From Clostridia bacterium (GTDB lineage: Bacteria > Bacillota > Clostridia > HGM11514): a stretch of 64,000 nt of DNA. The notes beneath the pieces were generated by a model that worked only from the letters and a program-made list of their open reading frames with translations, was not told the origin of the DNA and searched no databases. Below, piece after piece: positions 26,822-34,596 of this stretch. Numbering within the stretch: position 1 is the stretch's first letter; every line of letters starts with the position of its first letter. A program made the position numbers and the translations under genes. The stretch is taken from NCBI GenBank assembly GCA_045586685.1, contig JAZNAU010000009.1, positions 22,420-86,419 on the forward strand, read 5' to 3'.

Positions 26822-26911
26822 CGATTGAACATTTAGATTTTTAAGGTAACCGATTTTTGAGAAGTTTTACTAATAAATTAAGCAGAACCATAGAGATATT
26901 TAATTTATAAT

Positions 26912-27106
26912 AATTTGACAACTTCGTTGTCATGAATTGGTTTTACCATGAATTGTTGCTGTCGCAACATGAATTGAATTGCCTTAATGCACCCTAAGGT
27001 GCAATTCATGAGCCGTAGGCTTAATTCATGAAATCGCAGATTTCAATTCGTGCCGTCAGGCAATTTATTGAAAAAGCGACTTGTCAAAACAAGCCGCTTT
27101 TTCTGG
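26912..27106. repeat. repeat R, copy 1 (about 195 bp), ending in hairpin terminator
   Basis: near-identical to 30548-30726 apart from one 15-bp indel and 4 substitutions; contains TGACAACttcgGTTGTCA palindrome and multiple ATGAATTG/CAATTCAT octamers. Confidence 0.9.
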
Positions 27107-29999: not shown

Positions 30000-30065
30000 T
30001 TTTTACCTCTTTCTGCCGCAATTTATCGGCTGTTTATTAACTTAATAACAAACCTTGCCAAACAA

Positions 30066-30098
30066 AAAAGGAAGCTACCGATTTGGTAACTTCCTAAA
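30066..30098 (-). terminator. TPP riboswitch expression-platform terminator (attenuator)
   Basis: minus-strand hairpin ggaaguuacc-aaauc-gguagcuucc followed by uuuuuuguuu, between the aptamer and the thiM RBS. Confidence 0.7.
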
Positions 30099-30117
30099 AA
30101 GTTCTTTGTTCCTCCTA

Positions 30118-30215
30118 ACACTATGTATCAGGCATCCCTACGTTGGCATTATCCAAATCAGGTTCTCGGTCGAAGGTCATACCTTCCTCTCAGCCTGTAA
30201 TACAAGCTCCCGTTT
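30118..30215 (-). promoter_or_regulatory. TPP (THI-box) riboswitch
   Basis: minus strand reads ...GGCUGAGAGG...AACCUGAUUUGGAUAAUGCCAACGUAGGGAUG..., matching the THI-element consensus CUGAGA / ACCUGAUCUGGAUAAUGCCAGCGUAGGGA. Confidence 0.9.
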
Positions 30216-30230
30216 ATTAAGTTTAAACAT

Positions 30231-30259
30231 ATTATATCACTTTTCAAAGTATATTTCAA
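30231..30259 (-). promoter_or_regulatory. promoter of the thi operon (TTGAAA-17-TATAAT)
   Basis: hexamers on the minus strand immediately upstream of the riboswitch. Confidence 0.6.
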
Positions 30260-30329
30260 TAGATTTTGATAAATTATTTTAAAGAATATAAAAACTGAAT
30301 AATTAGATGTGTCATCTAAATCATTCGGT

Positions 30330-30530
30330 TTCTATGGTTCCCCCTGTTGGACTCAAACCAGACACGTTTGCAACCTCAATTCAATTTCTCCAACCCGGCG
30401 GCTCATTTCATCGTGTTGTGGCACAGCCCTACGCCGTCGTTGGTTCTTCCGCCGGCAGCACTCCGGCTCGGTCCTCTTTGGTTAACGCCGCATATGCGGC
30501 TGTTTACCCTTAATAATAGTTGGCTTTTGG
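30330..30530. other. GC-rich about 200-nt non-coding segment with several stable hairpins; candidate structured RNA of unknown identity
   Basis: markedly GC-rich relative to flanks; hairpins gccggcagcactccggc and gccgcatatgcggc; only short spurious ORFs. Confidence 0.4.
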
Positions 30531-30547
30531 CTACATAATATTTTAAT

Positions 30548-30726
30548 GATTTGACAACTTCGTTGTCATGAATTGTTGCTGTCTCAACATGAATTGAATT
30601 GCCTTAATGCACCCTAAGGTGCAATTCATGAGCCGTAGGCTTAATTCATGAAATGGCAGATTTCAATTCGTGCCGTCAGGCAATTCATTGAAAAAGCGAC
30701 TTGTCAAAACAAGTCGCTTTTTCTGG
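30548..30726. repeat. repeat R, copy 2 (about 179 bp), its terminator hairpin abuts the 3' end of the CAU tRNA
   Basis: see copy 1; ends ...gcgacttgtcaaaacaagtcgctttttctgg immediately followed by the tRNA CCA end. Confidence 0.9.
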
Positions 30727-30800
30727 TGGGCCTTCAGGGATTCGAACCCGGGACCAACCGGTTATGAGCCGGTTGCTCTGACCAACTGAGCTAAAGGCCC
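30724..30800 (-). tRNA. tRNA with CAU anticodon; the body resembles tRNA-Ile2 (lysidine-modified), elongator tRNA-Met not excluded
   Basis: reverse complement GGGCCTTTAGCTCAGTTGGTCAGAGCAACCGGCTCATAACCGGTTGGTCCCGGGTTCGAATCCCTGAAGGCCCACCA; similarity to B. subtilis tRNA-Ile(CAU) is recalled from memory. Confidence 0.8.
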
Positions 30801-31149: not shown

Positions 31150-34100
31150 TTATTCCCCATCACTAAACTGCAATTCAAAAATTCGTTGCAATACAACCTT
31201 GATGTTGGAAAGAATTCTATCCGCATCCTGTACCGCTGCTTTTCTAAAGGTAAGACAAGGCTTATTCCCAGCTGAGAACAGTAATTTATATTCTGCAATC
31301 ACCTGACTAAGTGATTTCATAAGATCGGGGGAAATTTCTTGCCAGTAAAAATTCAAATTTTCTCCAACCTGACGAATTTCCGTTATCCCCACCTTACCCG
31401 CAGTATTTTTCACCAGTGCAACCTCCAGCAAATTCAAGACACATGCAGGGGTATCCCCAAAACGGTCACACAGTTCATCTGCTACCTCATTATATTCTTC
31501 ACGGGTTGCAATTTTTGCAATTCTGCGATACAAATCCATTCTTGTCTGTTCACCGGAAACATAGGTTTTGGGAAGATATGCATCAATCTGCAAATCAATC
31601 TGCACCTCGGTTATTTCGTTCTCAATCATTTCGCCGTTTCTGCGACGGACTTCTTCTTCCAGCATATCACAGTACAGCTCATAACCTACCTGATCCATAT
31701 GCCCATGTTGCTCCGCACCCAACACGTTCCCCGCTCCTCTAATTTCCAAATCACGCAAAGCAATTTTAAAGCCGGACCCGAACTCTGTAAAATCACGCAA
31801 TGCAATCAGCCGTTTCTGAGCCGCATCATCCAGCACCTTATCCTTTTGATACATTAGATAAGCATACGCCATTTTATCCGACCGCCCTACCCGTCCTCTT
31901 AGCTGATATAGCTGAGAAAGACCAAGACAATCCGCATTTTCAATTAAAATGGTGTTCACATTGGGAATATCAAGACCTGTTTCAATAATGGTAGTACAAA
32001 CCAGTACATCAATCTCCCCTTCCGATACCGCCAGCATAATTTTTTCCAACTGTCCTTCCTTCATTTTTCCGTGAGCGAATTCCACACGGGCAGAAGGAAC
32101 CATTTTGCTGATTTTATGGGCAAGCGAAGAAATCCCCTCCACACGATTATACAAATAATACACCTGTCCGCCGCGGGACAATTCGCGAACAATGGCATCC
32201 TGTATCACCGAATCATTATGCTCCATCACATATGTCCGTACAGGATAGCGGTCTCTTGGGGGTGTGGAAATGACACTGATATCCCGAATTCCAATCATAG
32301 ACATATGTAGAGTTCTGGGAATGGGGGTTGCGGTCATGGTAAGCACATCTACATCCTGTTTCATTTCCTTTAGCCGTTCCTTGTGGGCAACTCCAAACCG
32401 TTGCTCCTCATCCACAATCAAAAGTCCTAAAGAGGGAAATTTCAAATCCTTCTGCAAAATCCGATGTGTGCCAATAATAATATCAATCTGTCCTCGTTCC
32501 AGCCGTTCTAAAATCTCCCGTTGTTCTTTTGCAGTACGGAATCTTGACAGCATTTCTACGCGAATCGCAAAGGGTTCCATCCGCTTTTTAAAATTCTGAT
32601 AATGCTGTAATGCCAAAATGGTAGTAGGTGCCAGATATGCCACCTGCTTATTATCCATAACACATTTGAAAGCAGCACGAATGGCAACCTCTGTTTTGCC
32701 GTAACCCACATCACCGCACAAAAGACGATCCATAGGAATAGGCCGTTCCATATCTTTTTTCACATCATCAATACACTTGATCTGATCCTCCGTTTCCGTA
32801 TAGGGAAAGGCTTCCTCAAATTCTTGTTGCCAAGAAGTGTCCTCAGAAAAGGAATATCCTTCTATATTCTGTCGGGCGGCATAAAGGCGAATGAGTCCGT
32901 CCGCCAGATCCGCACAACTTGCACGGACACGGCTTTTTGTATTATTCCATTCTTTTCCGCCCAGCTTATTCACCTTAAGAGAGGTTTTGGCTCCTACATA
33001 TTTATGGAGCAAATCCAGTTGGGTTGCAGGAACATACAGCATATCCGTTCCGCCATAGCGAATTTTAAGATAATCCTTTGTCACACCGCCTGCCGTCACA
33101 AGTTCCTGACCTAAATACTGACCGATTCCGTGATTGACATGAACCACATAATCTCCTGCATTTAAATCGGTAGCAACATTGAGAATCTTTTGCTGGTCTT
33201 TGGACTTTCGTCTCTTTTTTTCTTGCTTTTTCTTGTTGATATCGCGGTCACTGATGACCGCCAGCCCAATGGAAGGATACTCAAATCCACCGCTCAGGCT
33301 TCCCGTTGTGACAGAAAGAGAAACTGGCTCGCTCTGTGGATTTTCGTCAAAAACAGCAGGCAACCCGTCTTGTTGAAGATGATCAGACAAAATCATTCCG
33401 CGGCTTCTGCTTCCTGCCAATATTATAACACGATACCCCTGTTCCTGGTACAGTTGTAAATCTGCCGTCAACAGCGTCATGTTCCCATTGTATGTACTTT
33501 GATTTTTACATTCCAGCGTTACTAACTTTTTATAAGAAATTCCTGTGTTACTCTGCAGTAAGGGGCAAAAGCTCATGACCGTATTCCCCTTTAACCGATG
33601 AATCAATCCCTCGTATTCCAATGAATAATCTCCATCAACACCGCCCAAACTTCCTTGCTCCATCATAACAGAAACCGTTTGATGAACCTCCCACGACGCA
33701 TTTTCCGCTTTTTCCCGCAATAATGCAGGGTCATCAAGAAGAACAAGAGCATCACGGTCAAAATAATCCGTCAGCAAGGGTAACTTATCATAAAACAAGG
33801 GTAGATATTTATCATCAGATGGAAAATAACCAATTTCTCGCAGTCGTTCTGCATCCTTGGGACAAAACGGTTCTATTTTCGTTGCTACCTGTGCCCCCCG
33901 TTCCTTTGTATACAGCACCTCACGGGCAGGAGGAATGGTCACAGAAGAAATCCGTTCTACAGAAAGCTGAGTAAATACATCAAAGGTCCGCACTGTATCC
34001 ACTTCATCACCAAACAGTTCAATCCGCACAGGTTGTTCCAAATGAATCGGAAAAACATCCAAAATACCGCCTCTTAAGGCAAACTGGCCCTGTCCCTCTA

Positions 34101-34596
34101 CTGTTTCGAAACGGCTATAGCCTGCACTGACCAGTTTTGCAAGAACATGGTCAATGTCCACTTCATCCGCCTCAGAAATCGTCAGGGTATATTCTTTTAA
34201 ATGAGCAGGTGACAGCACCGGTTCACATACTGCCGAAACGGGAGCGACTACAATTCCGCCCTCACGAGAGATTCGTTCCAAAACAGAGATTCTTGCAGCA
34301 GTTGTTTCACGGCTGACTGTATCCATATCATAAAACACAAATTCCCGACCTGAAAACAAAAACACTCTCCGGTCCAGAAAAAAGCTCAAATCACGATACC
34401 ACATTCTGGCTGATTCTTCATTGGGTGCAATCACCAGACAGTTTTTCTGATTGGTATCCTGCAACAAAGAAAACAGAACATGGGCACGGCCCGTACCGGA
34501 TAAGCCGCTGACACAGACACATTCCTTATTTTCCAAACTATTTCGGATTTCCTTGTATCCTTCTAAGCAATCCAGCAATCCATCAAACCGTGGCAT
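31150..34596 (-). CDS. mfd: transcription-repair coupling factor
   Basis: 1148 aa; UvrB-homology N-terminus, DEAD/DEAH helicase motifs (GDVGYGKTEVA, DEEQRFG), TRG motif. Confidence 0.9.
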   Translation of the reverse strand: MPRFDGLLDCLEGYKEIRNSLENKECVCVSGLSGTGRAHVLFSLLQDTNQKNCLVIAPNEESARMWYRDLSFFLDRRVFLFSGREFVFYDMDTVSRETTAARISVLERISREGGIVVAPVSAVCEPVLSPAHLKEYTLTISEADEVDIDHVLAKLVSAGYSRFETVEGQGQFALRGGILDVFPIHLEQPVRIELFGDEVDTVRTFDVFTQLSVERISSVTIPPAREVLYTKERGAQVATKIEPFCPKDAERLREIGYFPSDDKYLPLFYDKLPLLTDYFDRDALVLLDDPALLREKAENASWEVHQTVSVMMEQGSLGGVDGDYSLEYEGLIHRLKGNTVMSFCPLLQSNTGISYKKLVTLECKNQSTYNGNMTLLTADLQLYQEQGYRVIILAGSRSRGMILSDHLQQDGLPAVFDENPQSEPVSLSVTTGSLSGGFEYPSIGLAVISDRDINKKKQEKKRRKSKDQQKILNVATDLNAGDYVVHVNHGIGQYLGQELVTAGGVTKDYLKIRYGGTDMLYVPATQLDLLHKYVGAKTSLKVNKLGGKEWNNTKSRVRASCADLADGLIRLYAARQNIEGYSFSEDTSWQQEFEEAFPYTETEDQIKCIDDVKKDMERPIPMDRLLCGDVGYGKTEVAIRAAFKCVMDNKQVAYLAPTTILALQHYQNFKKRMEPFAIRVEMLSRFRTAKEQREILERLERGQIDIIIGTHRILQKDLKFPSLGLLIVDEEQRFGVAHKERLKEMKQDVDVLTMTATPIPRTLHMSMIGIRDISVISTPPRDRYPVRTYVMEHNDSVIQDAIVRELSRGGQVYYLYNRVEGISSLAHKISKMVPSARVEFAHGKMKEGQLEKIMLAVSEGEIDVLVCTTIIETGLDIPNVNTILIENADCLGLSQLYQLRGRVGRSDKMAYAYLMYQKDKVLDDAAQKRLIALRDFTEFGSGFKIALRDLEIRGAGNVLGAEQHGHMDQVGYELYCDMLEEEVRRRNGEMIENEITEVQIDLQIDAYLPKTYVSGEQTRMDLYRRIAKIATREEYNEVADELCDRFGDTPACVLNLLEVALVKNTAGKVGITEIRQVGENLNFYWQEISPDLMKSLSQVIAEYKLLFSAGNKPCLTFRKAAVQDADRILSNIKVVLQRIFELQFSDGE

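Follow-up and report, generated by a model that had tools for sequence, protein, structure and literature searches.

A GC-rich block of about 200 nucleotides (nt) lies at positions 30330–30530 of a 64,000-nt stretch of a Clostridia bacterium contig (JAZNAU010000009.1; hereafter the window, whose numbering is used throughout), between a repeat, R, and the promoter of the thi operon. A reading of the sequence alone had left it unassigned, as candidate small-RNA territory. We conclude, with moderate confidence, that the block is a 5′-truncated relic of a tRNA-Asn gene carrying a copy, now decayed, of a non-autonomous insertion element that we call E. The small-RNA idea survives in part: E has a conserved, covarying structure of the RNA type, but the block holds a degenerate copy of a multi-copy repeat and not a unique small-RNA gene. 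Read on the minus strand, the parts of the chimeric unit are as follows:

30540–30569, minus strand: putative sigma-70-like promoter, ATGACA-18-TAAAAT, with 10 of 12 consensus matches
30519–30531, minus strand: decayed remnant GCCAAAAGCCAAC, an inverted copy of the 5′ half of the tRNA-Asn T-arm
30480–30509, minus strand: hairpin GGU-A-AAC-A-GCCGC-AUAU-GCGGC-GUU-A-ACC, present in both the minimum free energy (MFE) and the centroid folds
30364–30476, minus strand: full-length copy of E (covariance models), 113 nt with two hairpins
three bases before CGAGCC, with a linker: helix P0 of E
30469–30433: hairpin P1 of E, GCCG/CGGC, tandem G.A, two covarying base pairs (bp), CUGCC-GGC-GGAAG
30419–30370: hairpin P2 of E, followed by the 3′ tail AAACGU
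30335–30363, minus strand: 3′ half of tRNA-Asn, with T-arm UCUGG-UUUGAGU-CCAAC, acceptor strand AGGGGGA, discriminator A and CCA
30284–30331, minus strand: intrinsic terminator, a long A+U-rich hairpin CCGAAUGAUUUAGAUG-ACA-CAUCUAAUUAUUCAG followed by UUUUUAU

The sequence-only reading had seen no likeness to a tRNA in the block, yet 30363–30335 on the minus strand is the T-arm, 3′ acceptor strand and CCA of tRNA-Asn, and these final 29 nt (GUCUGGUUUGAGUCCAACAGGGGGAACCA) align with positions 52–73 of the tRNA-Asn at a related locus, L008 (GGTTCAAGTCCAACAGGGGGA). Of tRNA-Asn only positions ~25–39 and ~52–76 can be recognised in the window by alignment; in our account of the unit the remnant covers ~25–46 and ~47–76. 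The hairpin at 30480–30509 derives from the anticodon arm: its 3′ arm corresponds to positions ~25–39 of tRNA-Asn (AUGCGGC[U]GUUAACC; 14 of 15 nt in direct match) and its 5′ arm repeats that segment in inverse orientation, with an 11-nt reverse-complement match. The T-stem is weakened, and neither folding nor ARAGORN at relaxed settings found a 5′ acceptor strand complementary to AGGGGGA. The counterpart of the remnant GCCAAAAGCCAAC in L079 and L007, located by positional homology with L079, L043 and L007, is CACGAACCAAC; in L079 this inverted segment pairs with the 5′ half of the T-arm in a 9-bp closing helix, a complementarity that is gone in the window. The terminator is the most stable part (MFE −18.2 kcal/mol, z = −4.9, none of 200 shuffles equally stable), and was overlooked by a consensus scan because of the G+C criterion of that scan. 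Its homologues lie 3′ of a tRNA-Ser gene in L001 and 3′ of E units in L043 and L007. The promoter-like site, at the inner edge of repeat R, is the sole candidate start signal for a transcript of the block.

The sharp rise in guanine–cytosine (GC) content noted earlier is real: over 30350–30499 it is 0.52–0.61 in 100-nt intervals, against 0.19–0.31 on either side. The window as a whole has 41.6% GC, and the block is one of its four most GC-rich 150-nt stretches and, by comparison of coordinates with the list of open reading frames (ORFs), the only one of the four in an intergenic gap; its minus strand is purine-rich. The several strong hairpins that had been seen by eye did not bear out as a thermodynamic signal, the MFE being no better than that of shuffled sequences on either strand (z = −0.24 on the minus and +0.38 on the plus strand). 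Of the hairpins named there, GCCGCAUAUGCGGC (30500–30487) is kept in relatives, whereas the gccggcagcactccggc stem differs from the fold that covariation supports.

E was found through a translated search with one plus-strand frame of the block, which led to contigs with spurious ORFs (L007, L008 and L009) that share the same core. On the opposite strand all three show a tRNA gene, a terminator and then the core homologous to the window. The tRNA gene is tRNA-Asn in L008, tRNA-Met in L009 and, in L007, a 5′-damaged tRNA-Asn missed by ARAGORN. After the core, L007 and L009 repeat the 3′ end of that tRNA (T-arm and 3′ acceptor strand), and L008 keeps only the start of the T-arm. A 20-base pattern common to four copies, CGAGCCNGANNGCTGCCGGNGGNAG, was then searched over species-representative genomes, which biases the sample to one motif. 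It occurs in 69 stretches, 67 of which share the entire core; contigs of Bryobacterales and Microthrixaceae have chance matches without the whole core, and the pattern is absent from the viral contigs searched. Nearly all 67 loci belong to metagenome-assembled genomes (MAGs) of Clostridia from gut, faeces and rumen (Oscillospiraceae, Faecousia, Candidatus Aphodoplasma), and several MAGs yield three or four E-bearing contigs.

The check for conservation and covariation in relatives that the sequence-only reading had proposed thus recovered a structured family. Its structure was drawn from an alignment of 47 sequences and the statistics were taken on 72 copies aligned to the model. P0 is a short helix formed with the three bases preceding CGAGCC and a linker. 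P1 is an irregular hairpin with an outer helix GCCY/RGGC, a tandem G.A, two covarying pairs, an asymmetric loop and the inner hairpin CUGCC-GGU-GGCAG. In P2 the closing helix differs among three subtypes through fully compensatory changes, and the tail AAACGG is conserved. Standard pairs fill 93.7% of the paired cells in the 72 copies, against 29–57% when the partners are slid, compensatory changes affect both sides at 15 of the 19 pairs, and none of 500 shuffles matches the observed values. In the paired columns G.U occurs 25 times and A.C 10 times, which mildly favours the minus strand as the one that would be structured. The ends of E, GGAACCGAG... and ...CAAACGG, are not inverted repeats.

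The window copy is a full-length member of this family. A covariance model built from the 72 copies with the window excluded (R2) matches the 64 kb only once, at 30364–30476 on the minus strand, with 64.7 bits, an E-value of 1.1e-11 and model positions 1–116; a model that included the window (R1) gives 76.6 bits and an E-value of 3.6e-15. Typical copies score 95–115 bits, and those of the window's P2 subtype 71–98 bits. In P1 the outer helix is GCCG/CGGC, and the two pairs of GU/AC (G-C and U-A) are both compensatory relative to the consensus. The inner stem CUGCC/GGAAG departs from the family, with a G.A at the third pair where all 72 other copies have G-C and where the stem CUGCC/GGCAG is 100% paired; the copy is therefore damaged there. 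The closing helix of P2 forms four of its five pairs, with an A.C outermost, and is followed by the tail AAACGU, and the interior of P2 is of the subtype found in L009, L046 and L064. The nesting is also that of the family, with an AAAGAGG/AC-CGAGCC junction at the 5′ side and the tRNA-Asn 3′ half after E. Folded alone, the window E has an MFE z of +0.71, whereas the unit of L079 reaches −3.4 in a fold in which the inverted T-arm segment closes onto the 5′ half of the T-arm around three hairpins. With its weakened T-stem, lost closing helix, unique mismatch and lack of a thermodynamic signal, the window copy looks to be decaying.

Several observations mark E as a discrete cassette that has multiplied. 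Copies within one MAG are 97–100% identical over ~104–111 nt in unrelated flanks, and the identity stops within ~6 nt 5′ of CGAGCC and at CAAACGG; such sharp-boundary pairs are L023 (tRNA-Met context) and L035 (tRNA-Pro context), and L014 and L036. At L072 an intact 5S rRNA gene, with the empty site GGGATGG/GAACAGG, adjoins a 5S copy that carries E exactly there, the insertion being clean within 1 nt, with neither a target duplication nor terminal inverted repeats. The filled 5S copy carries a diverged E-like element at a second point, and both are antisense to the 5S RNA. Immediately 5′ of E stands (G/T)GG in 58 or 59 of 59 distinct flanks. At ~30 loci a tRNA gene on the same strand lies upstream of E, mostly ending 70–120 nt ahead of it, and the flanks of E derive from this neighbour: T-loop variants in the inverted copy match it, and the 3′ flank repeats its 3′ end. 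Four loci (L037, L059, L019 and L067) have a tRNA-Asn pseudogene that keeps its 5′ half largely or fully; E lies in its anticodon or variable-loop region, its 3′ part has decayed, and an intact tRNA-Asn gene stands alongside.

A gene linked to E was sought by all-against-all clustering of the ORFs within ±4 kb of the 69 loci, with Pfam searches on the cluster representatives. None was found in that range: apart from spurious ORFs over E itself, only unrelated genes recur, the representatives examined being AraC-type regulators, an ABC transporter, an HtrA-like protease, a galactokinase and one ORF without a Pfam match.

The position upstream of thiM is itself informative. The exact ThiM sequence has no match on record, and its best homologues, 90–91% identical, point to a member of the gut Clostridia. 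The thi leader, the promoter and the upstream terminator are all conserved in the nearest contigs, and L001, L002 and L006, the closest relatives (ThiM 87–90% identical), lack E ahead of thiM. Homology with the window ends at ~30337, immediately 3′ of ACCA, in L001 and L006, and at ~30299 in L002. At the position of the block, L001 has a tRNA-Ser gene, L002 two tRNA genes, L003 and L004 a prophage integrase beside the 3′ end of a partial tRNA, and L006 a 5S rRNA gene, tRNA-Glu and tRNA-Met genes and then ~230 nt of A+T-rich sequence. As the position is so variously filled, the block is a variable insert at a tRNA hotspot and not a conserved part of the thi region. A more distant locus, L043 (Candidatus Aphodoplasma), has a syntenic and intact copy of E upstream of its thi operon. 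In comparison with L043, the identity of the window copy reaches 90% in the hairpin, 86% in the terminator, 74% in P0–P1 and 59% in P2, which is of a different subtype; the thiamine pyrophosphate (TPP) riboswitch has 96% and thiM DNA 74%.

We propose that a copy of a tRNA-Asn gene lost its 5′ part and that E interrupts its variable-loop region after AGGG. Ahead of the remnant would lie a duplicate of its 5′ end in inverted form, and behind it the terminator found after a tRNA gene in relatives. E itself would be a small non-coding cassette of ~110–113 nt with two conserved hairpins, multiplying in the genomes of gut Clostridia and inserting after (G/T)GG at loop-coding positions of stable-RNA genes or of fragments of them, namely the tRNA T-loop, the variable loop and loop C of 5S rRNA. 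Its conserved fold would most likely be the recognition structure for an enzyme acting in trans on single-stranded DNA or RNA, and E would have no function for the host. The window copy is probably neutral baggage, inert between tRNA-Met with repeat R and the thi promoter; it may at most be transcribed as a ~240-nt RNA ending at the conserved terminator.

Some points weigh against this account. The search turned up no transposase, integrase or reverse transcriptase, which leaves mobility supported by comparative inference only, and every genome copy comes from MAG contigs collected with a pattern that favoured one motif. The chimeric layout persists across genera and diverged E variants (L043, L079, L007/L080, L008), and a hairpin conserved at 90%, next to thiM DNA at 74%, looks like selection for an RNA gene. 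Simple insertion does not explain the locus-specific inverted copy of the neighbouring tRNA, and at T-loop sites the target bases TTC are replaced and not merely separated. The excess of G.U over A.C, 25 to 10, is only modest. The inverted tRNA copy, the replaced TTC and the persistent layout keep alive a functional tRNA-like RNA, and also allow insertion by a snap-back or tRNA-primed route.

The latter can be put forward tentatively, as a possible but less probable account: E, as RNA or single-stranded DNA, would be the core of an undescribed mobile element, or a tRNA-mimicking RNA, with the loop-coding parts of tRNA and 5S genes as its homing sites, and its insertion would produce an inverted duplicate of the target tRNA through a snap-back or tRNA-primed process that may involve reverse transcription. 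L070 would point this way, as the inverted duplicate there contains 18 nt perfectly complementary to a tRNA 3′ end with CCA. We know of no bacterial counterpart to insertion of this kind.

We consider it rather unlikely that the unit is instead a functional chimeric tRNA-like non-coding RNA gene of which E is the functional core and not a parasite. Its transcript would run from ~30533 to ~30290, with a closing helix, three arms (the anticodon-derived hairpin, P1 and P2) and a single-stranded 3′ tail made of the tRNA-Asn 3′ end with CCA, and would work by mimicking a tRNA or by pairing with its cognate tRNA or the processing enzymes of that tRNA. Besides the layout and the hairpin conservation just given, this would fit the cloverleaf-like arrangement in the MFE fold of L079, a 3′ half that stays identical to each genome's own tRNA-Asn (31 nt in L079), the strong covariation with conserved unpaired nucleotides, the conserved dedicated terminator, and an orientation of E that is always that of the upstream tRNA. 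Against it, the closest relatives do without E at the thi locus, genomes hold many copies with sharp cassette ends in unrelated flanks, E also lies antisense inside 5S rRNA genes, and in most copies a separate promoter would not fit. Decay of the tRNA parts is seen in the window, L007, L008 and L037, and in the window copy stems are broken and the thermodynamic signal is missing.

A scar of integration is very unlikely. The tRNA 3′ half would be the right attachment site (attR) of a lost tyrosine-integrase island and the core the terminal arm of that island, for which speak the hotspot character of the region upstream of thiM, with a phage integrase beside a partial tRNA 3′ end in L003 and L004, and the succession of tRNA gene, terminator, core and direct repeat of the tRNA 3′ end in L007, L009 and L079. 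No integrase occurs within ±4 kb of any of the 69 loci, however, and the core keeps the same sharp ends whether it sits in a T-loop, a variable loop or a 5S gene, and whichever way it faces with respect to the host RNA gene. The sequence beside the tRNA fragment is not of the core type of integrase sites, covariation of the RNA type is not expected of attachment-site arms, and neither phage records nor 2.9 million viral contigs yielded a match. The distance from tRNA to core is mostly 70–120 nt, without a recombinase cluster, and there is no tRNA-Asn gene within the 64 kb.

That the block is a degenerate known RNA (transfer-messenger RNA (tmRNA), signal recognition particle (SRP) RNA, 6S RNA, RNase P RNA or an rRNA fragment) or the remnant of a coding gene is effectively refuted, a weak permuted-tmRNA alignment and three open plus-strand frames being outweighed by searches that returned no known RNA family over the block or over the core of its relatives and no genuine protein homologue.

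In these searches no Rfam family was found over the block at gathering scores, as the failure to match it by eye had suggested. SRP RNA, 6S RNA and RNase P RNA have no match at an E-value of 10 or below within 30200–30760, which also removes the weak resemblance to SRP domain IV that had been noted. Over 30330–30530 the list at that cut-off is empty apart from a permuted-tmRNA alignment at 30483–30648 on the minus strand, mostly in repeat R. As the best that the tmRNA families (RF00023, RF04321) gave, it scores 15.9 bits where the gathering score is 47, and it was rejected. ARAGORN found no tmRNA in the block in its tmRNA mode and no tRNA gene at default or relaxed settings, RF00005 has no match there, and with introns, tmRNA and lowered thresholds ARAGORN gave only implausible calls, at the 70% threshold. 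Rfam placed no family over the core in 23 related loci (18 + 5).

The earlier statement that the block holds only short ORFs is right in that it is non-coding, but on the plus strand three overlapping ORFs of 58, 63 and 68 amino acids span 30307–30538, so that every frame is open. The 68-residue frame has no homologue among 5.8 billion proteins, and a full HMMER scan with the 63-residue frame matched four proteins, all of them spurious ORFs that also cross antisense tRNA genes. A protein-coding remnant was rejected, as there is no protein-level conservation and the matches are spurious ORFs that overlie E itself. Public protein catalogues contain such ORFs across E and antisense tRNA genes (P0122–P0124).

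Other identities were also tried and set aside. A phage- or plasmid-borne element finds no blastn match in phage records, and two exact patterns are absent from the 2.9 million viral contigs. P1 was compared by eye with a k-turn, a hammerhead, group II domain V and an integron attC site, and misfits all of them in spacing or consensus, with no Rfam support. Readings as an IS110 bridge RNA or a TnpB/IscB guide RNA were considered because tRNA-matching segments flank the core; these segments are 12–18 nt long and sequestered in hairpins, and no nuclease or recombinase gene lies nearby. Full-text literature searches by core string or topic gave no description of E, and the core string is absent from the 200 of 408 supplement files covered of a human-microbiome structured-RNA catalogue; E may still figure as an unnamed candidate in other collections.

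By its behaviour E would come closest to the palindrome-associated transposable elements (PATE) derived from IS200/IS605 and the REP/REPIN elements, and to the intervening sequences (IVS) of rRNA, as parallels and not as families to which E is assigned. PATE/REP elements, which HUH (Y1) transposases move, are like E short, non-coding and multi-copy, without terminal inverted repeats or target duplication, and show orientation-specific insertion by a short target, conserved hairpins near both ends and presumably mobilisation in trans. Unlike theirs, the hairpins of E are dissimilar to each other, long and irregular with conserved internal loops. Its target amounts to no more than (G/T)GG, at hairpin loops of 5S and tRNA genes; the surroundings of the copies (±4 kb on fragmentary MAG contigs) showed no gene for TnpA, TnpB or RAYT; and beside it stands an inverted duplication of the host tRNA, to which those elements have nothing comparable. 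Of the 4–5-nt left-end motif and similar hairpins expected of PATE/REP, E shows only (G/T)GG at its 5′ side, with P1 and P2 dissimilar. IS605-orfB-I and IS605-orfB-II, which we take to be Rfam families, are not among the Rfam matches.

The rRNA IVS resemble E as non-coding stem-loop inserts of ~100–150 nt in loop positions of stable RNAs, sporadic among copies and strains. They lie co-oriented in 23S and 16S helices, whereas the hosts of E are tRNA-derived fragments (sense) and 5S genes (antisense), and E is one conserved family with sharp cassette ends at many unrelated sites. Attachment-site scars at tRNA genes (attL/attR) share with E units the place directly downstream of a tRNA gene, the duplicated tRNA 3′ end and the hotspot locus; E units differ in having neither integrase nor cargo, in their combined inverted and direct tRNA copies, in covariation of the RNA type and in a core that also occurs inside 5S genes. 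Group IIC introns, which target stem-loop terminators and attC sites, are like E in an apparent preference for hairpin targets, orientation specificity and a structured RNA core. They are unlike it in that E has ~110 nt, no group II match in Rfam and no reverse transcriptase nearby, and also occurs antisense to the host RNA.

Some further features accompany E at individual loci. At L072, L031 and L058 tandem 5S genes with a terminator each stand without 23S in the available sequence, and some of the 5S copies are broken by one or two antisense E insertions. A conserved GC-rich block without an Rfam match, module 2 (GGUGAUGCGCAGUCGGGUACCGAAAGACG...GGGUCGACAAGCAGG), separates E from the tRNA 3′ fragment at L047, L023, L054, L035 and L069, ~40–150 nt 3′ of E, the units reaching ~330 nt. 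At L040, L051 and L061 an unannotated motif with two covarying hairpins, GACUACCGAGAAAUUGCGAGC...GCUCGCAAUUUCAGCCG...GGAAAC...GUUUCC...GGCGGCGGUAC, is found ~150 nt 5′ of E; the GACUACCGAGAAAUUGCGAGC motif accompanies one E subtype in either orientation and is inverted in L036 and L014. Gut-1 RNA (RF01706; 66 and 69 bits) occurs at L047 (1341–1412, minus strand), where it begins directly after the tRNA-Leu 3′ fragment that closes an E unit, and at L064 (7831–7906, minus strand), and drum RNA (RF02958; 54 bits) at L054 (4258–4377, plus strand). The 18-nt complement at L070 is TGGCGGAGAAGGAGAGAC, in the spacer between tRNA-Ser and E; it pairs perfectly with the 3′ end of the upstream tRNA-Ser including CCA, stands directly 3′ of the tRNA terminator and resembles the primer-binding site of a retroelement.

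Within the window, the minus-strand order is mfd, tRNA-Leu, tRNA-Met, repeat R, the GC-rich block, the A+U-rich terminator, the thi promoter, the TPP riboswitch, thiM, thiE and a HAD-ThiD fusion. The features around the block are:

31150–34596, minus strand: mfd (Pfam TRCF, UvrB_inter, DEAD)
30544–30727: repeat R, copy B (context), which holds the bidirectional tRNA-Met terminator at 30690–30723
30259–30231, minus strand: thi promoter-like site TTGAAA-17-TATAAT (consensus scan)
30118–30223, minus strand: TPP riboswitch (Rfam)

The last two confirm that the block lies outside the thi leader, as had been proposed. The locus upstream of the thi promoter is a hotspot of recombination and integration, occupied by tRNA genes or a prophage integrase across the relatives. 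The thi leader (window 30000–30223 against L043 1594–1815) is far better conserved than thiM, with 96% identity in the riboswitch and 94% in the post-aptamer leader, compared with 78% for the ThiM protein and 74% for thiM DNA. Repeat R has a second, direct copy at 26908–27106 that is ~98% identical to copy B, so that the two bracket the tRNA-Asn::E unit and the whole thi operon, which suggests that the block moved or was duplicated as one unit. The repeat consists of a bidirectional terminator hairpin and four or five small hairpins, with AATTCATGA after each. It belongs to no Rfam family, and its identification as Gut-1 RNA was rejected at 16.7 bits against a gathering score of 50.

If this account is true, uncultured Clostridia of gut and rumen carry an abundant and structurally constrained 110-nt element, missing from Rfam, that colonises copies of tRNA and 5S genes. 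It would explain a class of GC-rich orphan intergenic blocks beside tRNA genes, would yield spurious ORF calls in metagenome protein catalogues, and would make tRNA and 5S pseudogenes able to mislead annotation. No well-described bacterial transposition pathway accounts for a cassette without inverted repeats, target duplication or a linked enzyme that is accompanied by inverted tRNA copies. As these features fall outside the described pathways, the E family merits dedicated study, as a testable entry to a possibly new mechanism of mobilisation or to a new tRNA-like RNA.

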